DNA of 64,000 bases from a bacterium (GTDB lineage: Bacteria; Margulisbacteria; WOR-1; O2-12-FULL-45-9; XYB2-FULL-48-7). Positions 25,654 through 33,500 of this stretch are shown piece after piece. The position numbers and the translations under genes were made by a program. Numbering within the stretch: position 1 is the stretch's first letter; every line of letters begins with the position of its first letter. The stretch covers positions 21,125-85,124 of the forward strand of contig JBDRLW010000003.1 of assembly GCA_043812655.1 (NCBI GenBank), read 5' to 3'. The notes below the pieces were generated by a model that was given only the letters and a program-made list of their open reading frames with translations, was not told the origin of the DNA and made no database searches.

Positions 25654-26052
25654 TTAAGAACTGCGAGTCATGCCATCCTTGCGAACTCTAGATGTAAAAG
25701 CTTTGAGTTGGCGGAAAATGTTTTCCGCTTTACTTAAGTACAATTTATGGTCAGCATCAATAATGTATCCATCGTCCAATGCCGCGTCCAAACAAGCCAC
25801 CACTTCACCAACCGAAGTTAAAGCTGTATTGAGAAATCTGCTAAAATCAACATCCGAATATCTTTCCGATCCTTCGGCAATATTTAGTAGGATTGAGTCC
25901 ATGGCTCGCCATAATTGTGAAGTTAAACAATATTGTTCTTCTTTAGGGAATTTTTTCTTGCTTAATTGTTTTAATCCAACCCTAAATTCGCGAGCATCTT
26001 TGTATACCGGAAACTCTCTAAATCTAAATACGCTTATTGTTTTTTCGTTCAT
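25654..26052 (-). CDS. four-helix-bundle protein (23S rRNA intervening-sequence protein family, PF05635/TIGR02436-like)
   Basis: 'FPKEEQYCLTSQLWRAMDSILLNIAEGSERYS' matches the conserved family core (FPKEE...L.SQ.RRAa.Si..NIAEG). Confidence 0.7.
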   Translation of the reverse strand: MNEKTISVFRFREFPVYKDAREFRVGLKQLSKKKFPKEEQYCLTSQLWRAMDSILLNIAEGSERYSDVDFSRFLNTALTSVGEVVACLDAALDDGYIIDADHKLYLSKAENIFRQLKAFTSRVRKDGMTRSS

Positions 26053-26067
26053 AAGTTCATAAGTTTA

Positions 26068-26736
26068 TCAGTTTATAAGTTCTTCAGTCTTTCCGTTCTT
26101 CATGATAAAATCAATTACCCGACCAAACGAATCATCAATGAACCGTTGGTCACGGTAAGTTATTAGTTGCTTTAGCTCTGGCTGATAAACATCTTTTATG
26201 AGTTGGCAACGCTCAAGCAATATTGGCAATTTCCCCTTAAAAACATCTAAATTCGCGATAAGCTTCTCCCTATCTTCATCTATCACTACTGCCAGGTCAA
26301 AAATATCCCGGCTTTTAAACTGTTCCGCCCGATAAAATATTTTTTTGACTATTATCTCCGGCGGGGTTTCAATGTTGATTTGATAACGTCCAACCTTCAT
26401 CTTTCCAATTGGCTCCTTGGTCAAATAAGGAGCGGCAATAAAATCAATAAAAACATCACCCTTTAACTTTATTTTGAGATAATTAGATTGTTCTTCCGCT
26501 CCAGCATAATCCTTGTCGCTTTCCACATGATCATTTAAACGTGGCGATAAACACGTTAAATATTGTACGTCGGTCAAAAAAATGTCTATGTCCTTACTGT
26601 AGCGGTGATGATAATAGGACATCAACGCCGTCCCTCCGCCAAACGACCATTTATTGACCGGTATTTGTGCTGATTCCAGGTAAGCAATAGCTTTCAATAA
26701 AATTTTTTCCCACTTTTCAGTTCTATTATTTAGCAT
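26068..26736 (-). CDS. nucleotidyltransferase, AbiEii/AbiGii toxin family (type IV TA toxin-like)
   Basis: 'WSFGGGTALMSYYHHRYSKDIDIFL' matches the AbiEii GGTAL...R.S.DID NTase core. Confidence 0.6.
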   Translation of the reverse strand: MLNNRTEKWEKILLKAIAYLESAQIPVNKWSFGGGTALMSYYHHRYSKDIDIFLTDVQYLTCLSPRLNDHVESDKDYAGAEEQSNYLKIKLKGDVFIDFIAAPYLTKEPIGKMKVGRYQINIETPPEIIVKKIFYRAEQFKSRDIFDLAVVIDEDREKLIANLDVFKGKLPILLERCQLIKDVYQPELKQLITYRDQRFIDDSFGRVIDFIMKNGKTEELIN

Positions 26737-27004
26737 ACTTGAAATACTCCTCGAACATAAGGTTGCGATAATATTTTCTCACGTTTTTTTTATAATAATT
26801 CAATGTTTGTAGCGCCGTCAACTTATGTTTCTTAATAAAACTCAGGATCGTGCTTAATGGTAATTCCGTAAAAAAAGCAAAGATATGGGCGTAATACTCG
26901 GCTTTCAATAAACCACTTCGAATGAGAGCGGCCGCCGTTTCCTCAGAAATCGGCTTTTTAACTGAAATATTGATAATGGAAAACAATGAATTATCTTTTT
27001 TCAT
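26726..27004 (-). CDS. small protein upstream of an AbiEii-like NTase; putative cognate antitoxin
   Basis: 92 aa, overlapping the NTase start. It shares a 'FIKKHKLTA'/'FAKKHGRQF' motif with the small ORF at 28692-28928. Confidence 0.3.
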   Translation of the reverse strand: MKKDNSLFSIINISVKKPISEETAAALIRSGLLKAEYYAHIFAFFTELPLSTILSFIKKHKLTALQTLNYYKKNVRKYYRNLMFEEYFKYAK

Positions 27005-27010
27005 TTTTTC

Positions 27011-27050
27011 AGTTCCTTCGTTCTTTGGTTCTTTAGTCCTTTGGTCTGTT
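27011..27050. repeat. right inverted repeat of the cassette (reverse complement of the AAGAAC-rich repeat)
   Basis: Its reverse complement 'gaacagaccaaaggactaaagaaccaaagaacgaaggaac' matches 25608-25650. Confidence 0.55.
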
Positions 27051-27161
27051 CTTCCTCTTCACCATTCATTATTCACGATTCACTTAATCCTTACCATGGC
27101 TCGACAGGCTCGCCATCCCAGCCATCCCGAGCTCAGTCGAGGGACTTACTACTTAATCTTT

Positions 27162-27995
27162 TTACTTCTTAATCACGCTATATAACGTCAAGCCAAGCAT
27201 GATCGTATTAACAAAGCCGGCAAAATCGGAAAAGTAAAAGAAATTCCCTGGGACATTAATCACATCGCCCCCTAGTATTTCCACATCATTTTTCGAGTCC
27301 CCATCATAAATGATCCTTGAGGCATTGATATATTTTTTATCAGGTTTTCCGTTTGCCTGCCTGGCAATTGTCACCGAGCCTAAAAGAGCCTTGGGGCTTG
27401 GCCCGCCGGCAAAGCTGATATAGTCAGACAACTTTTTACCTGGCAAATATTCAAACCGTCCAACCTTGTTCACTTCCCCATAAACGGAAACGTATTTTTT
27501 TTCGCCCATAAAAACCGGTTGGGCGCTATCCCCTGTCGCGTAGATATTAACCATTCTCGGTTGGATCAGCCGAAACGAAAAAACATATTTTTCCTTGTAC
27601 CCGCTTTTTATTTTTTTATCGATCGCTTTTTTGGCTTCAACAATAGAAAGTCCAAGCAGGTTGATCGCCCCAACTTTTGGGAAATAAATTGTCCCTCCCG
27701 GTTCAATCGTAAATATCTGATCGAGAGACATTTCATCTTCTCCAATGATCAGATTAGCAGAAACTATATCGCCAGGGCCAAGCTTATAGGTATTAACATC
27801 GATCGCGTCACCAACATAATCAGAAGTTACTGGCAAGCTAGAAGCTGGATTAGCCGCCGCATAAGCCCTTTTAACATCAGGAATTTGAAACCCCGAGTTT
27901 TTTAGATCATCCAAATTAACAGCAAAAATCGGAGAGCTCAATAAAATTATATTAATAACAAGAAAACTAGCTATATGCTTGATGATCTTTTTCAT
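27162..27995 (-). CDS. wza: polysaccharide export protein (Wza-like: Poly_export plus SLBB domains) with signal peptide
   Basis: N-terminal signal 'MKKIIKHIASFLVINIILLSSPIFA'. 'LGPGDIV' and 'IEPGGTIYFPKVG' are Poly_export/SLBB-like. Confidence 0.6.
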   Translation of the reverse strand: MKKIIKHIASFLVINIILLSSPIFAVNLDDLKNSGFQIPDVKRAYAAANPASSLPVTSDYVGDAIDVNTYKLGPGDIVSANLIIGEDEMSLDQIFTIEPGGTIYFPKVGAINLLGLSIVEAKKAIDKKIKSGYKEKYVFSFRLIQPRMVNIYATGDSAQPVFMGEKKYVSVYGEVNKVGRFEYLPGKKLSDYISFAGGPSPKALLGSVTIARQANGKPDKKYINASRIIYDGDSKNDVEILGGDVINVPGNFFYFSDFAGFVNTIMLGLTLYSVIKK

Positions 27996-28043
27996 AATCT
28001 CCCCCCCCCATTGATTTTATTTTACCAGATATTAGGCACATAT

Positions 28044-28688
28044 TTAGCCTGCCTCCTTGATCTTGTTGCGGAAAAAAGCGGCAATAGTCTTTGGTGCAGC
28101 CGGCTGTTCGCTTAGGTAACGAAGCTTTTCATCGACAACAATATCACCAGTAAATGCCAACTGCTCCAGGAACATCCGCTCGCTAAAGACCTCTCCATAT
28201 TTCTTTTTGGCTATATCAGTTATTTGATCAAGCGCGAGAAAATTATTTTTTACCATGACATAAAGATCAAAATAATCACGGTAATTACCGCGTCGGCCCA
28301 AAGCATATGCCTTGGTCGCCGCGATATCCTTGATCGATAATAACGGTAAATTTCCTGTTGTTTTCACCAATGGAAAAAGCGGTCGCCAATAATAATTCAA
28401 GAGCGTAATTTTAATATTGCCATCTAGAACTATTGTCAACTCATCAGCCGTATCGACTAGAGTGGTAAGATGATATTGGCGCAGTCCGCCCAGAAGTTTT
28501 CTTTTAACGGCAAAGGTAATATCCTTATCACGAAAAAGGTCGAAATCGAGTGACTCACGATGTCCTATCTGCAAAGCTAAAGCCGTACCACCGGCTAGAT
28601 AATAATCATGGCCTAATACTTTATTGAGCCTGGAAAAAACTGTCTTTCTTTCCGGATCAAGTATTTTCCAAAATAATTTTTTATTCAT
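28044..28688 (-). CDS. nucleotidyltransferase, AbiEii/AbiGii toxin family (second copy)
   Basis: 'YLAGGTALALQIGHRESLDFDLF' is the AbiEii NTase core motif. Confidence 0.6.
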   Translation of the reverse strand: MNKKLFWKILDPERKTVFSRLNKVLGHDYYLAGGTALALQIGHRESLDFDLFRDKDITFAVKRKLLGGLRQYHLTTLVDTADELTIVLDGNIKITLLNYYWRPLFPLVKTTGNLPLLSIKDIAATKAYALGRRGNYRDYFDLYVMVKNNFLALDQITDIAKKKYGEVFSERMFLEQLAFTGDIVVDEKLRYLSEQPAAPKTIAAFFRNKIKEAG

Positions 28689-28691
28689 TAT

Positions 28692-28928
28692 TTATGCAAA
28701 CAAAGCCTTAGCGAAAGGCAAGATACTTTTTCGGCTGAATTGCCTGCCATGTTTTTTGGCAAAATTATAGACCGATTTCCTTCCCAATTTCTTTGCCAAA
28801 TAACGCAAATGTTCCATCCTTCCTTTTTCCAAAGCCTGGAAGAGGATCGTATCCCTGTCCTTTTCCAGGGACATTTTATCAAAATCAGCAAACCATAAAA
28901 TTGACTTGAAATATAACGGCAGTCTCAT
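28692..28928 (-). CDS. small protein upstream of the second AbiEii-like NTase; putative cognate antitoxin
   Basis: 78 aa, 3 nt upstream of the NTase. It shares the KKH motif with the 26726-27004 product. Confidence 0.3.
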   Translation of the reverse strand: MRLPLYFKSILWFADFDKMSLEKDRDTILFQALEKGRMEHLRYLAKKLGRKSVYNFAKKHGRQFSRKSILPFAKALFA

Positions 28929-28932
28929 GATA

Positions 28933-30039
28933 TTATTTTACCAGATTTTCAAGATACTTTCCAATCGCCAAACAACTTGTCAACCCGGGACTCTCTATCC
29001 CAATCAAATTAATAAACCTTGGACAACCATTTTCTTTCTCTTCCTTGATCACAAAATCCCTAAACCCATCGTTTGGACCTTGAAGTTTTGGCCGCATTCC
29101 CGCTGTATCTGGCGCCAGCATCGCTTCATCGACCCAAGGCAAATAGGTTTTAACCGCTTGATAAAAATCTTTCCTTTTAGCTGGATCTACATCATAATAA
29201 ATTTTTTCGACATATTCAGTATCCGGCCCCAGTCTAATGTACCCATCAAGATCAAGAGTAGCATGCACTCCAAGCCCATGTCCCTGTTCATGCGGCACCG
29301 GATAAACCAGATGGTTTAATTTCCCTTTAGACCCAGTTACCCCGAAATAATCACCTTTACAATAATAGAGCCTGTAACCAAGCTTATCAATATCAAACCC
29401 GGCTAACTGCGCCATTTTATCGGCGTTTAAACCAGCACAGTTGATCACCCATTCACTCTGAATACTTTCCCCATTCTGATCAGTTAAAACATACCCATCC
29501 CCTTGTTTCTTTATCTCTTTTGTCTCGCTTCCAAACGCGAACATAACCCCGTTCTTCTCGGCTTTTTTATTTAAGCAATCCATTAAACCATGAGAATCAA
29601 TGATCCCCGTCGAACCGGAAAAAATACCGTTCAACGCAAAAACATTTGGTTCGAGAGCCAAAACATCTTCTTTTGTCAATAATCTTAGATCAGGGACCCC
29701 AACCGAAACAGCATTATTATAAATTGATTCTATTTTTTTGGCTTCAGCTTCGTTGGTTGAAATAATTATCTTGCCGCATTTTTTATGCTTCACACCATTT
29801 TCCGCACAAAACTGATATAAAAGTTTGTTACCTTGAAGACATAAAAGACTTTTCAATGAGTCTTTAGGATAATAAATCCCAGCGTGGATAACTTCACTAT
29901 TGCGGCTGCTAGTCTCTTGGCCAAAGCTATCATGCATCTCAAAAACTACGATATCGCCATCAATTTTTTGTGATAAGGCTTCGGCGATCGCAAGTCCAAT
30001 AACGCCGGCTCCAATTATTGATACTTTGACATTGTCCAT
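28933..30039 (-). CDS. FAD-dependent oxidoreductase (DAO family; L-2-hydroxyglutarate oxidase-like)
   Basis: 'VSIIGAGVIGLAIA' dinucleotide-binding motif. Length 368 aa. 'GLRP' and 'IGIESPGLTSCLAIG' at the C-terminus are typical of LhgO/DAO enzymes. Confidence 0.6.
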   Translation of the reverse strand: MDNVKVSIIGAGVIGLAIAEALSQKIDGDIVVFEMHDSFGQETSSRNSEVIHAGIYYPKDSLKSLLCLQGNKLLYQFCAENGVKHKKCGKIIISTNEAEAKKIESIYNNAVSVGVPDLRLLTKEDVLALEPNVFALNGIFSGSTGIIDSHGLMDCLNKKAEKNGVMFAFGSETKEIKKQGDGYVLTDQNGESIQSEWVINCAGLNADKMAQLAGFDIDKLGYRLYYCKGDYFGVTGSKGKLNHLVYPVPHEQGHGLGVHATLDLDGYIRLGPDTEYVEKIYYDVDPAKRKDFYQAVKTYLPWVDEAMLAPDTAGMRPKLQGPNDGFRDFVIKEEKENGCPRFINLIGIESPGLTSCLAIGKYLENLVK

Positions 30040-30041
30040 AT

Positions 30042-30461
30042 TTACCCCATCTGTCCCGCCTTCGGCGGGACATCTTCCCCTTGGTAAGGGGAAGAATATA
30101 AGGAATTATCAATCTTATCTCGAATACTAGCAATCACTTGTTCAAGATTATTAAAAACCTCTTCATTTGTAAAACGAATGAAATTGATTTCTAAACATTC
30201 TATCAATTTCTGTCGTGCTTTATCATAATTGCGTTGATTTCTACTAAGATGATAACCACCATCAATTTCAATTCCCAACCTGACTTCTGGTGAATAAAAA
30301 TCAATCACAAAACCCTTAATGCTATATTGTCTTCGGAACTTATGCCCATTAACTTTTCGTTTTCTTATTTGTTCCCATAATATTTTCTCGGCTTCCGTCA
30401 TATTCTTACGCAGTATTTGTCTTTTTTCTCGATCACGACTTCTATTATATATCTTTGTCAT
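30042..30461 (-). CDS. DUF559 endonuclease-domain protein (Vsr/PD-(D/E)xK-like)
   Basis: 'LRKNMTEAEKILWEQIR', 'FRRQYSIKGFVIDFY', 'LGIEIDGGYH' and 'YDKARQKLIECLEINFIRF' are the conserved DUF559 blocks. The C-terminal tail reads through a flanking inverted repeat. Confidence 0.65.
   Translation of the reverse strand: MTKIYNRSRDREKRQILRKNMTEAEKILWEQIRKRKVNGHKFRRQYSIKGFVIDFYSPEVRLGIEIDGGYHLSRNQRNYDKARQKLIECLEINFIRFTNEEVFNNLEQVIASIRDKIDNSLYSSPYQGEDVPPKAGQMG
30073..30093. repeat. inverted repeat flanking the DUF559 gene (left copy), containing palindrome CCCCTTGGTAAGGGG
   Basis: 'cttccccttggtaaggggaag' read directly. Its partner 'ctcccccttaccaagggggag' lies at 30497-30517. Confidence 0.65.
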
Positions 30462-30496
30462 AAACGCTGATTCTCCCCTATCTTTAACGCCGATAT

Positions 30497-30517
30497 CTCC
30501 CCCTTACCAAGGGGGAG
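30497..30517. repeat. inverted repeat flanking the DUF559 gene (right copy)
   Basis: Reverse complement of the core of the 30073-30093 repeat. Confidence 0.65.
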
Positions 30518-30539
30518 ATTATAGAGGGGGTAATCCATG

Positions 30540-33500
30540 TCACGAAGTGACAGAGGGGGTATGATAATCCTGCAGTGCCTTAACATCAAACCCTTTCTTC
30601 TTCGCGGCTTCAATGCCATTAACCGTAGCCTGGGCGCCAGAGATGGTGGTAATAAGAGGAATGTTATGCATAACCGCAGCGGAGCGGATCTTGGTTTCAT
30701 CAACCTTGGTCTGCTTGCCGCCAGGAGTATTTATTAGAAGTGAAATCTCCCCTTTATTAACTAAATCAAGAATGTCATTGCCACTTTCGCTTAATTTTTG
30801 AATAACTTCACAATCAATCCCGTTCTTCTTTAATACTCCGCCCGTCCCAGCCGTAGCCACAATGGAGAAGCCTAGGTCAGCCAATTTTTTAACAATATAA
30901 ACGATCGACCGCTTATCCCGGTTGTTGACCGAAACAAAGATCTTCCCCTTTAATGGTAAATTCTGCCCTGCCGCAATCTGCGACTTCATAAAAGCAGTCC
31001 CAAAATCGTTATCGATCCCCATCACTTCACCGGTTGAGCGCATCTCGGGACCCAAGATCGCATCGGCTCCAGGGAAACGATTAAACGGAAAGACCGCTTC
31101 TTTAACCGAGACATGTTTAGGCTCAACTTCGGTTAAAATCCCTTGCTGTTTTAGCGTTTTGCCAATCATCACCTTGGTCGCCACTTTGGCCCAAGGAACA
31201 CCGGTTGCCTTGGAGACAAAGGGAACGGTCCGTGAAGCCCGGGGATTGACCTCCAAAACATAGACCCGATCATTCTTGACCGCGAATTGGATATTCATTA
31301 AACCTTTAACTTTGAGCTCTTTAGCCATGGCATAAGTATTATGCTTAATGGTTTCAATGATATCGGCGCTTAAAGAAAATGGGGGTAATGAACAAGCGGA
31401 ATCTCCCGAATGGATCCCCGCTTCTTCGATATGCTCCATGATACCGCAAACCACCGTCTGCTTCCCATCAGAGACCGCGTCAACATCAACTTCGATCGCG
31501 TCTTCCAAAAACTTATCGACCAAAACTGGATGTTCAGGCGAAACTTGAACTGCTGTTGACATAAATTCATCTAGGTCTTTATCGTCATAAACAAGCCGCA
31601 TTGCCCGGCCGCCTAAGACGTACGAGGGCCGGACCAAACAAGGATAACCGATCTTTTTGGCGATCTTCCGCGCTTCCTTGGTTGAGTAAACGGTCCCGTT
31701 TGGCGCTTGATGCAATTTTAATTTTTTAAGCATGGCCGCGAAGCGTTTGCGGTCTTCCGCCCGGTCGATCTGCTTTGGGGAAGTCCCAATTATTCTTGCC
31801 CCTGCTTCTTTTAAAGGCAGAGCCAGATTCAACGGCGTTTGGCCGCCAAACTGGACAATGATCCCATCAGGCCTTTCTTTTTCAATGATACTTAGAACAT
31901 CTTCCCGCGTTAATGGTTCAAAATAAAGTTTGTCGGAAGTATCATAATCGGTCGAAACCGTTTCGGGGTTGGAATTGACCATGATCGATTCGATCCCTTC
32001 TTCCCGCAAGGCGAACGAGGCATGGACGCAGCAATAATCAAATTCGATCCCTTGCCCGATCCGATTCGGACCGCCGCCTAAGATCATTACCTTCTTTTTT
32101 TGGGTTCGCTTTACTTCATCTTCTTGCTCATAAGTCGAGTAATAATAAGGCGTGTAAGCTTCAAACTCAGCCGCGCAGGTATCGACCAGTTTATAAACTG
32201 GCGCGACCCCAAGCGCATTTCGCTTGGCATAAATTTCTTTTTCGGTTTTCCCGATCAAATAAGCCAGCTGTTTATCAGAAAATCCGCATTGCTTAGCTTG
32301 ATACAACAAATCTTTCTCTTCTAATATTCCCGGACCTTGGACCTTGATCCTGGTCTCTTCTTCTATTATCTCAACGATATTTTCTAAGAACCACGGATCA
32401 ACCTTGGTCAATTCATAGACCTTTTTTACCTGCATCCCCGTTTTAAGAGCGTGCTTAATATAGAAAATCCGGCGGTCATTGGGTGTCTTTAACTTTTCAA
32501 TTAATAATTCTTCTTTGATAAATTCTTTGCCGTCAGCCCCCAACCCCGCCCGGCCAACTTCGAGCGAGCGCAAACCTTTCTGCAGCGCTTCTTTAAATGT
32601 CCGCCCGATCGCCATCGTTTCACCAACCGACTTCATTGAGGTGCCGATTACAGCCGGAGTATCGGGGAACTTCTCAAACGTGAACCGGGGGATCTTCACT
32701 ACGCAATAATCGATCGACGGCTCAAACGAGGCCGGAGTTTCTTTGGTTATATCATTGGGGATTTCATCTAATGTATAGCCGACCGCCAACTTGGCCGCGA
32801 TCTTGGCGATCGGAAAACCGGTCGCTTTTGATGCCAAGGCTGACGAACGGGAAACTCGCGGATTCATTTCAATTATCACCATTCGCCCGGTATCTGGATG
32901 GACACCAAATTGGATATTGGAACCACCGGTTTCAACCCCGATCGCTCGGATCGCCGCTAGCGACTGGTCACGCATCTTTTGGTATTCTCTATCGGTTAAG
33001 GTTTGTGCTGGTGCCACAGTGATCGAATCACCAGTGTGAACCCCCATCGCGTCAAGATTCTCGATCGAACAGATAATGACAACATTATCTTTCTTGTCAC
33101 GCATCACCTCAAGTTCGTACTCTTTCCAACCAGTCAGGTCTTCTTCAATTAATACTTCGGAAGTCGGTGAAAGTTCCAGTCCTTTGCTCACTACTTCTTT
33201 ATATTCTTCCATCGTGTGGGCAACGCCAGAACCAGTGCCGCCAAGCGTAAAACTGGGACGAATAATAACTGGTAAACCAACACCATCGATCTTTTTTAGA
33301 GCTTCTTCAATCGTCTTGGCAAAAAAGCTCTTCGGAAGATCAAGCCCCGCTTCTTCCATCGCTTTTTTGAAGAGTTCTCGATTTTCCGCTTTTTTGATCG
33401 CTTTAACATCGGCCCCGATCATCTCGATCCCATATTTATCAAGGATCCCTGTTTCGGCAATCCCGATCGCGGTATTAAGCGCTGTTTGTCCGCCAATTGT

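Follow-up and report, generated by a model that had tools for sequence, protein, structure and literature searches.

Inverted intrastrand triplex motifs bracket a stand-alone DUF559 nuclease gene in a WOR-1 bacterium and accompany its relatives across bacterial phyla

Repeats of the kind called BoxC, PIT or TM are on record from hundreds of bacterial genomes, with catalogues that go back to the 1990s. Here we describe a gene for a small, stand-alone DUF559 nuclease, which is enclosed by two inverted repeats that appear to belong to this class. The gene lies in a 64,000-nucleotide stretch (64 kb) of contig JBDRLW010000003.1 (positions 21,125 to 85,124 of the forward strand) from a WOR-1 bacterium of the Margulisbacteria. 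The whole stretch is called the window in the following, and positions are counted from its first nucleotide. We think the chances somewhat better than even that positions 30043-30561 are a compact selfish cassette, in which a stand-alone DUF559 gene is bracketed by inverted intrastrand triplex motifs.

The repeat class was known as BoxC, then as PIT elements and then as triplex motifs (TMs) (Holder et al. 2015, NAR 43:10126, PMC4666352); an earlier description of the motif is that of Hoyne et al. 2000, as cited in PMC4666352. The E. coli consensus is CCCTCNCCC-N3-6-GGGNGAGGG-N3-GGGNGAGGG. A TM forms a stable triplex in vitro. E. coli K-12 has 23 copies, five of them in inverted pairs, and the TM loci are hypervariable among E. 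coli strains; TMs are associated with variable loci and are abundant in cyanobacteria. Near the E. coli TMs there were no transposase or integrase remnants, and no mobilising activity was found. Earlier work, as cited in the same paper, saw no promoter or terminator activity of such elements, and RNA is stated not to form purine-motif triplexes. No protein associated with the motif is reported, and the words 'endonuclease' and 'DUF' are absent from the paper (all PMC4666352).

Other known systems resemble the locus in part. In the REP-RAYT system (REPtrons, REPINs; PMC3116915) a single small nuclease-type gene likewise lies between inverted copies of a palindromic repeat that is scattered through its genome; the repeat type varies with the gene, and gene-less inverted doublets exist. 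The window gene differs in that it encodes a PD-(D/E)xK (Vsr-like) protein and not an HUH Y1 transposase, and the repeats that are linked to DUF559 genes carry an extra mirror (triplex) arm. Furthermore, no dispersed repeats occur elsewhere in the window, whereas they are present in E. coli (23 copies) and apparently in cyanobacteria. The homing endonuclease I-Bth0305I (EDxHD/Vsr-like) and the phage homing-endonuclease families share a related catalytic core with the window protein and, on the homing side, are selfish nuclease genes spread via DNA breakage and repair. In contrast to these, the window gene is free-standing, intergenic and single-domain (~115 aa), it lies outside an intron or intein, and its ends are structured repeats and not exon homology. 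From insertion sequences and miniature inverted-repeat transposable elements the locus differs in that composite inverted ends are present with no target duplication seen at the ends compared and no known transposase family.

The window protein matched the DUF559 family of Pfam (PF04480) with 97.7 bits (gathering cut-off 20.6) and an E value of 4.7e-28, over aa 12-117 and positions 5-108 of the 109 in the profile. Residues D54, E65, D67 and H71 were invariant in 20 homologues; by analogy with the Vsr family they may be the catalytic core residues of a PD-(D/E)xK-type enzyme. The closest solved structure is PDB 3hrl, a structural-genomics DUF559 entry named 'endonuclease-like protein' (E 1.9e-15 with the single sequence, 2e-27 with a profile), while the catalytic domain of I-Bth0305I (PDB 3r3p) was reached with a profile E value of 2.9e-5. 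The domain is contained in PHROG families labelled homing or HNH endonuclease (phrog_3339, 'homing endonuclease', E 6.6e-7), in the anti-phage proteins Hhe and ProA and in a methyl-directed restriction enzyme. An exact look-up of the window protein returned no record. The protein falls into the same PD-(D/E)xK subgroup as Vsr (PMC3424549), and relatives are named 'very-short-patch-repair endonuclease' in databases. However, the Vsr model of Pfam gave no match at E <= 0.01, where only DUF559, MTES_1575 and PvuRts1I-like_N were listed, and there is no C5-cytosine methyltransferase gene next to the window gene, which has carB and a DAO oxidoreductase gene as neighbours. For these two reasons the window protein is not a classical Vsr, from which it also differs by being repeat-flanked. 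The near-family copies that are treated below adjoin glycosyltransferase, radical-SAM and Mur-ligase genes, not methyltransferase genes.

The features of the cassette are collected in Table 1. In each end a pyrimidine arm and a purine arm enclose a 3-nt loop, and a linker, which is either 2 nt long or a second hairpin, connects them to an outer purine arm. This outer arm repeats the purine arm in mirror image and is not complementary to it. Read on the gene strand, the left side consists of ACCCCCTCT and GTCAC-TTC-GTGAC (together 30561-30539), ATGGATT, ACCCCCTCT ATA and hp1; the right side reads hp1', T, hp2 and AGATGGGGT, which ends at 30043. The stems of hp1' and hp1 are perfect over 10 and 11 bp. 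As reverse complements of each other, the two hairpins have a perfect core of 15 nt and are 92% complementary over arms of 24 nt; the single difference between them is compensated inside each hairpin stem. A strict hairpin scan of all 64 kb returned hp1 and hp1' as the sole matches. With up to one mismatch, CCCCTTNNNAAGGGG was matched three times in the 64 kb (0.25 expected), and the third match (9926) is mismatched and within a coding region. The 10-mer AGAGGGGGTA and its one-mismatch variant are found at three sites in the window (30552-30561, 30523-30532 and 30043-30052). All three are at the ends of the cassette and point outward, which sets the unit at ~30043-30561 (519 bp). Both ends fold as twin hairpins (z = -7.2 and z = -4.3 vs shuffles) when they are folded as DNA by ViennaRNA, in which only hairpins are modelled. 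The hairpin hp2 would act as a structured linker that joins hp1' to the outer arm and holds the two in proximity.

Table 1. Features of the DUF559 cassette and their positions in the window. Empty cells: no entry.
Feature	Positions	Strand	Remarks
Whole cassette, ~519 bp: DUF559 gene between a left and a right composite end	30043..30561	(-)	Delimited by outward outer arms and similarity break
DUF559 nuclease open reading frame (ORF), 139 aa	30042..30461	(-)	Domain aa 12-117 (nt 30111-30428); residues 118-139 are right-end read-through
Shine-Dalgarno-like AGGGGAG, 11 nt 5' of DUF559 start codon	30473..30479	(-)	Putative, read from the sequence
hp1, left-end hairpin ATCTCCCCCTT-ACC-AAGGGGGAGAT	30495..30519		11 bp stem, 3-nt loop; + strand reading
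O1, left-end mirror arm TAGAGGGGGTA	30522..30532	(+)	Mirrors hp1 purine arm after 2-nt linker
Outermost left module: hp2' GTCAC-GAA-GTGAC (30539-30551) and second mirror arm AGAGGGGGTA (30552-30561)	30539..30561	(+)	
hp1', right-end hairpin, TCTTCCCCTT-GGT-AAGGGGAAGA on + strand	30073..30095		Loop ACC on gene strand
hp2, right-end second hairpin, TGTCCCGCC-TTC-GGCGGGACA on + strand	30052..30072		GTCCCGCC-GAA-GGCGGGAC on gene strand
Right-end mirror arm AGATGGGGTA	30043..30052	(-)	Mirrors AAGGGGAAGA with two A-to-T changes

A first-pass annotation of this DNA had seen the DUF559 gene as a cassette bracketed by a perfect inverted repeat. The bracketing is real, since the gene stands between two perfect GC-rich hairpins with an exact core. 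The repeats are inverted as described, but they are members of a known intrastrand-triplex class and not simple repeats; the boundaries of a discrete cassette are visible, but they enclose more than was then proposed. One of the two 21-mers on which the annotation was built is found where it was placed (30497-30517), and the other, given as 30073-30093, is at 30074-30094. A 15-mer hairpin that was said to follow at 30056-30070 exists at 30055-30069, as a part of the right end. The annotation also put the gene between carB, which ends at 30540, and an unrelated FAD oxidoreductase of the DAO type, which starts at 30039, and this was borne out; all three genes are on the - strand. Finally, it explained the C-terminal tail of the protein as read-through of the repeat. 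We agree, because the Pfam domain ends at aa 117 and in L090, L001 and L002 (relatives are cited by our locus numbers) the stop codon of the ORF is inside the loop of hp1'. SPLQGEDVPPKAGQKG, LPLNKGKMSAAGGQKG and similar tails, with which the proteins of the closest homologues (53-73% identity) end, are translated hp1' and hp2.

A scan with one genome per species yielded 80 loci with DUF559 homologues of 41-56% identity. The counts over these loci include related cyanobacterial loci; de-replication at 70% protein identity gave 73 clusters. Most of the 80 loci have perfect palindromes upstream of the gene, typically 37-90 nt before the ATG, and at or just past the stop codon. In each palindrome the pyrimidine arm, which has CTT at its end, is separated by a 3-nt loop from the complementary purine arm. 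Among the phyla represented are Cyanobacteria, Margulisiibacteriota, Patescibacteria, Ignavibacteria, Bacteroidota, Nitrospirota, Poribacteria, Calditrichia, Chloroflexota, Armatimonadota and Proteobacteria. Over the first 100 nt on either side of the gene, hairpins occur at 7.3/kb (upstream) and 4.9/kb (downstream); beyond 500 nt their density is ~0.1/kb. After de-replication, the strict motif is present on at least one side in 42 of the 73 clusters, about 40-fold above background, and on both sides in 28 of them. In viral loci with a DUF559 domain (61 loci, 191 kb) there was one motif; these are distant domain homologues, otherwise without repeats.

The gene and the type of its repeat show signs of coupling. 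Upstream and downstream stems agree within the locus in 55 of 67 loci, and the stem type differs between protein clades; distant metagenome homologues have the variant stems CCCTCTCCC/GGGAGAGGG, CCCCCCTTT/AAAGGGGGG and CCCTCTCCAC/GTGGAGAGGG. Stem positions that were not used for detection show Watson-Crick covariation (position 7 is paired in 0.86 vs 0.46 expected). Of 78 loci, 47 have the gene between two repeats in inverted orientation and 10 have it between two in direct orientation. The mirror arms mostly face the gene; in the sub-family of the window they face outward. Single repeats apart from DUF559 genes occur in cyanobacteria. These comparisons show that the gene is accompanied by its cognate repeats from one bacterial phylum to another.

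Beside most hairpins there is a G-rich extra arm, which is complementary to nothing nearby and which mirrors, and covaries with, the adjacent purine arm. Pairs of purine arm and mirror arm are GGGGAAGA/AGAAGGGG, GGGGGAGA/AGAGGGGG, GGGGGAGG/GGAGGGGG, GGGGAAAA/AAAAGGGG and AAGGAGAGGGA/AGGGAGAGG. For a quantitative estimate, near-perfect matches at most 8 nt from the stem were counted at the 146 hairpin sides where mirror and direct matches are distinguishable. The mirror image was found at 30.8% of these sides, compared with 6.2% for a direct repeat, 0.7% for the reverse complement and 0.7% for a permuted target. In 144 of 184 cases the linker has a length of 3 nt. Where an arm deviates from the mirror, the change is nearly always A-to-T (66, vs 3 other changes at A). 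Overall, a mirror arm stands beside ~84% of the hairpins that adjoin DUF559 genes. This pattern is the code by which an antiparallel triple helix of the purine motif is built (G*GC, A*AT, T*AT).

The left end in the window (30495-30532, +) has the form of a canonical triplex motif, with AAGGGGGAGAT followed by TAGAGGGGGTA and loops of 3 and 2 nt, within the 1-6 nt of the ITxF rule. At the right end AAGGGGAAGA is followed by AGATGGGGTA, and the second loop is a T plus a 20-nt hairpin. This is outside the published loop range of 1-6 nt, so that the published search criteria would miss the right end. By their letters, the window ends match the intrastrand triplex motif class, purine type class II. 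Points in common with BoxC/PIT/TM repeats are the order of the three blocks (a pyrimidine arm, then its purine complement, then the mirror purine arm), a first loop of 3 nt, a second loop that is commonly TTA-like, and a tolerance of T opposite A-T pairs. TMs are also intergenic, multi-copy in cyanobacteria and enterobacteria and often arranged as inverted pairs, and six of the DUF559 loci (L097, L099, L117, L118, L143 and L160) carry the E. coli-type stem CCCTCTCCC/GGGAGAGGG. The stems of the window, TCTCCCCCTT/AAGGGGGAGA, do not fit the E. coli consensus CCCTCNCCC, which places them in the same class but not in the E. coli family. Another difference is that the motifs in the window are the ends of a gene cassette, whereas the published TMs are free intergenic repeats. 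No Rfam family matched. Two other readings of the ends were dropped: a G-quadruplex reading of the G-runs was inconsistent across relatives, and for an integron attC site there was no integrase and no attC-like core.

In homologues of 53-73% identity these non-coding ends recur, and the surrounding genes differ in at least four further contexts. The cassette precedes a glycosyltransferase gene in L081-83 and a Mur-ligase-like gene in L171; it lies between an H+-pyrophosphatase and a radical-SAM gene in L084, and in L090 between a membrane protein gene and a DAO oxidoreductase gene whose product is 50.5% identical to that of the window. L172 and L174 are further contigs with neighbour genes that lack annotation. 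The left ends in this near family have hp1 in common, located 37-90 nt before the start codon and mostly preceded by the ACCCCCTCT arm; the right ends have in common hp1', T, hp2 and AGAAGGGGT. The hairpin hp1' is conserved in L081, L084, L090, L171, L172, L003 and L001, and AGAAGGGGT occupies the position of the right outer arm in L081, L084, L090 and L172. The right-end hp2 of L003 is identical to hp2' of the window and is followed by a closely similar outer arm, while L174 has the full mirror-image architecture at both ends, like the window. The stem of hp2 covaries with full compensation (CCGCC/GGCGG, ACGAC/GTCGT, AC/GT, CGATG/CATCG) and with a fixed closing GTC..GAC; its structure is kept but not its sequence, because hp2 replaces the second loop. 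In the Margulisiibacteriota copy L001 (3380-3480) hp2 has grown to ~70 nt with internal hairpins, and GTCCC..GGGAC and AGAAGGGGT are kept.

The nucleotide similarity between the window and L081/L084 breaks at the right end, at 30035-30044. In the cyanobacterium Oscillatoriales USR001 there are two copies (L016 and L021), which are 95.7% identical over ~490 nt and have unrelated flanks. Their similarity begins ~85 nt upstream of the ATG, continues to ~20 nt beyond the stop codon and comprises in addition an 80-nt repeat-bearing segment further downstream. The pair shows that relatives of the cassette can duplicate within a genome. The same ends in other contexts, a similarity that stops at the ends, and the two copies in USR001 support the earlier description of the element as a discrete DUF559 cassette. 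That the window copy itself has moved is something that we infer.

The same pairing is seen in E. coli. The sole DUF559 gene of K-12 is ycjD (b1289; 1351407-1351760, - strand), and YcjD is 34% identical to the window protein over its full length (E 9e-20). The stop codon of ycjD is within a degenerate TM, which produces the tail SPSP*, and 168 nt downstream of ycjD lies an intact TM, TMECO #9 (1351204-1351239 in Table 1 of Holder et al. 2015). By our own estimate the chance that one of 23 TMs in 4.64 Mb lies within 300 nt of a given gene is ~0.005. The E. coli locus differs from that in the window by its E. coli-type stem, by a TM on the 3' side only, by a partial duplication of the 3' end and by being a replacement locus. 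The duplication is a ~55-nt partial copy of the 3' end of ycjD (L175 2205-2420; K-12 1351204-1351420) between the degenerate TM and TMECO #9, and it looks like the footprint of a repeat-mediated rearrangement. The ycjD gene and its TM segment are present at the fabI-sapF site in 3343 of 5426 complete genomes. The remaining genomes, as sampled, have no ycjD segment there and carry instead eefRABCD, an efflux operon of 8 kb (Nissle is an example); eefRABCD has been described as the alternative at the ycjD locus (PMC12817139). Towards fabI, the homologous sequence ends ~40 nt short of the TM. To judge from these alignments, ycjD/eef is a replacement polymorphism and not a clean insertion.

Could the repeats have a function that is unrelated to mobility? 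The hairpins may be ordinary expression signals (a terminator, an RNA-stabilising pair or a translational control element) around a horizontally acquired accessory gene. GC-rich stable stems do flank the ORF in a co-directional gene string, many relatives have within their stems a CCTCCTT/AAGGAGG-like sequence that resembles anti-Shine-Dalgarno/Shine-Dalgarno sequences, and in the window, L084, L090 and L171 the start codon of the downstream gene follows 4-10 nt after the G-rich end of the cassette. However, no stem is followed by a T-tract, and there were 0 terminator-like sites on both strands of 29900-30700. With the negative earlier assays that are cited in PMC4666352, this leaves without support the bidirectional terminator pair that the first-pass annotation had held in reserve. 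A stem sequence conserved across more than 10 phyla together with a conserved mirror arm is unexpected for terminators. On the sense strand G-T wobbles (18) are no commoner than C-A mismatches (22), which argues against selection at the RNA level, and the inability of purine-motif triplexes to form in RNA points the same way. We therefore regard expression signals as an improbable explanation. Mobilisation in trans by another enzyme (an IS200/IS605-type or RAYT Y1 transposase, or a hairpin recombinase), with DUF559 as a passenger, seems to us very improbable. In having a subterminal hairpin at either end the cassette is reminiscent of IS200/IS605 elements and of REPIN doublets, and E. coli has gene-less inverted TM pairs, but the DUF559 gene is the one constant partner of the repeats across phyla. 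No transposase gene stands beside the near-family copies examined (the Y1 search of the window was not exhaustive), and the E. coli TMs are free of transposase or integrase remnants (Holder 2015, PMC4666352).

A different explanation is that DUF559 is a host nuclease for repair or defence and that the repeats are independent parasites or fragile sites, both of them co-located in intergenic spots that are rich in repeats, prone to rearrangement and apt to gather small accessory genes, or that the nuclease is kept to resolve forks stalled at triplexes. The hypervariability of TM loci among E. coli strains (PMC4666352), the alternation of ycjD/TM with the 8-kb efflux operon at one E. coli locus, and the cyanobacterial repeats that stand apart from DUF559 genes are in line with it. 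So are the anti-phage and restriction proteins with a DUF559 domain and the Vsr-like behaviour of a Caulobacter DUF559 protein (PMC12907096). On the other hand, the only two repeats in 64 kb bracket the gene, their position and inverted orientation relative to the gene are stereotyped, the stem type agrees on both sides and shifts with the protein clade, the non-coding ends move with the gene into unrelated contexts, and no cytosine methyltransferase gene adjoins the window gene. Co-location of a host nuclease with independent repeats is plausible, but it is a poor fit to the clade-matched inverted arrangement, and we consider it rather unlikely.

How a selfish cassette of this kind might spread can be sketched. 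As single-stranded DNA, the ends would fold into a hairpin with a third strand alongside, held by G*GC, A*AT and T*AT triplets. The nuclease would recognise its own folded or palindromic repeats and nick or cut them, and repair or template switching would then copy the cassette, gene-less repeat pairs or single repeats to new sites. Such a process would parallel that of REP repeats with the RAYT transposase, or that of a free-standing homing endonuclease.

Several points weigh against the interpretation as a selfish cassette. The action of the nuclease on its repeats is a step that we infer purely, and we know of no PD-(D/E)xK nuclease this small that acts as a transposase alone. The window holds no other copies of the repeat and no DUF559 paralogues, so there is no sign of activity in the source genome. 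Three oxidoreductase relatives nearer than that of L090 (67-73% identity) have no DUF559 gene in front, which speaks for a discrete cassette. The gene upstream of the oxidoreductase in these three is not carB, which means that absence is shown but not the clean, empty carB-oxidoreductase junction that the first-pass annotation had looked to relatives for. An empty site for the insertion in the window was thus not found through these oxidoreductase relatives, none of which is beside carB, and a flank-to-flank comparison of the fetched loci for empty sites returned orthologous occupied sites only. The pairing of DUF559 and DAO genes in L090 (2880-2932) is either an old insertion that was lost several times or a similar gene start that was hit twice. 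When 10 ends were compared by eye, no target-site duplication was visible. The cassette stands at the same locus in many Microcoleus strains and also in two Spechtbacteria, with repeat arrays of varying length, which indicates that the cassette is often stably inherited. About 40% of the de-replicated DUF559 clusters are without the strict motif, and in vivo no stable triplex was detected in duplex DNA (Holder 2015, PMC4666352).

The cassette contributes sequence to both of its neighbours. The outermost left module encodes, on the - strand, the last six codons of carB (TPSVTS) and its TGA stop (30540-30542). The right outer arm holds the TAA stop codon of the DUF559 gene (30042-30044), and the ATG of the oxidoreductase gene follows 2 nt past it. 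The GGGG of this arm is 5 nt before that ATG (30039) and serves as the ribosome-binding site (Shine-Dalgarno) of the oxidoreductase gene. The idea of an insertion aimed at Shine-Dalgarno sequences was suggestive in 4-6 of 10 near-family copies and unsupported in the wider set. Co-orientation with the neighbours (~72%) is the same as in ordinary gene strings and uninformative. A 66-aa ORF antisense to the 3' end of carB (30537-30737, +) has its ATG 5 nt after the arm AGAGGGGGTA, which is like a ribosome-binding site; this ORF is probably spurious.

A promoter scan of the region gave weak consensus matches only. In an alignment of 5' flanks, L001, L003, L090 and L091 have a TATAAT box 5-15 nt before the DUF559 start, just after hp1, which suggests that these genes have their own promoter with a very short leader. 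The window copy has no TATAAT box and instead has the Shine-Dalgarno-like AGGGGAG. Downstream of the oxidoreductase gene, the window contains small accessory genes (25654-28928): a 23S-rRNA-IVP four-helix-bundle gene (25654-26052) and two AbiEii toxin genes (26068-26736 and 28044-28688), each of the latter preceded by a small ORF. None of the accessory genes in this segment is flanked by hairpins. AbiEii, DUF6922 and 23S_rRNA_IVP genes are also near the oxidoreductase gene in L085 and L087, and this neighbourhood seems to collect small accessory genes. In L087, which comes from an organism related to that of the window, two TM-type hairpins lie side by side in an intergenic region (1237-1308; TTCCTCTCCC-AAA-GGGAGAGGAA and CCCTCTCCC-CCT-GGGAGAGGG), and there is no DUF559 gene in the 11 kb fetched; the pair may be gene-less repeats.

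Further observations concern the repeats of more distant relatives. One of the two USR001 copies has a tandem duplication of a ~60-nt unit with the downstream triplex motif (L016 3353-3492 vs L021 990-1069). In Microcoleus, the length between identical flanks varies from one orthologous locus to another by hundreds to thousands of bases, and the repeat arrays seem to change faster than the gene. On plasmids we found 7 distant homologues only. A DUF559 gene that is more distantly related, on plasmid pAQ6 of Picosynechococcus PCC 7002 (L170 2780-3560), is embedded on both sides in a nest of a different repeat, CCCCC-N5-GGGGG-YYA-GGGGGC with a CCCCTAAATCCCC..GGGGACTTTCTACTGGTG unit. Its layout is alike (C-run, loop, G-run, 3 nt, G-run), and the loop measures 5 nt. 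No cassette-free relative of the pAQ6 copy was found.

The repeat class and the protein family are each already known. We found no literature that links DUF559 or YcjD to hairpins, BoxC or triplex repeats, in a search that left most subscription journals outside; the pairing of DUF559 with TMs, the architecture of the cassette and the variant with a hairpin as loop appear to be unreported. Tentatively, and as a possibility to which we give less credence than to the cassette itself, stand-alone DUF559 proteins may be the missing protein partners of BoxC/PIT/TM repeats. Each protein clade would read its own folded repeat and spread both, as a system of the REP-RAYT type that is unrelated to RAYT. 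The window cassette would then be a minimal autonomous copy, and the inverted and single TMs of E. coli and cyanobacteria would be gene-less derivatives.

The findings have consequences for the annotation of genes as well as for the biology of the repeats. The odd tails of many 'endonuclease domain-containing proteins' (PPLxKGG, PPPAPPC, SPYQGE etc.) are explained as read-through of a repeat. Such a cassette can rewrite the 3' end of a neighbour gene and can provide a downstream gene with its ribosome-binding site. The pairing, which recurs from E. coli to cyanobacteria, offers orphan repeats a candidate protein partner. DUF559 is a large orphan nuclease family, and with ycjD and the 23 TMECO copies the role of the family and that of the repeats become testable in E. 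coli. DUF559 may thus be a natural protein that reads a DNA triplex or hairpin, and the cassette would, if confirmed, represent a new class of minimal selfish element.

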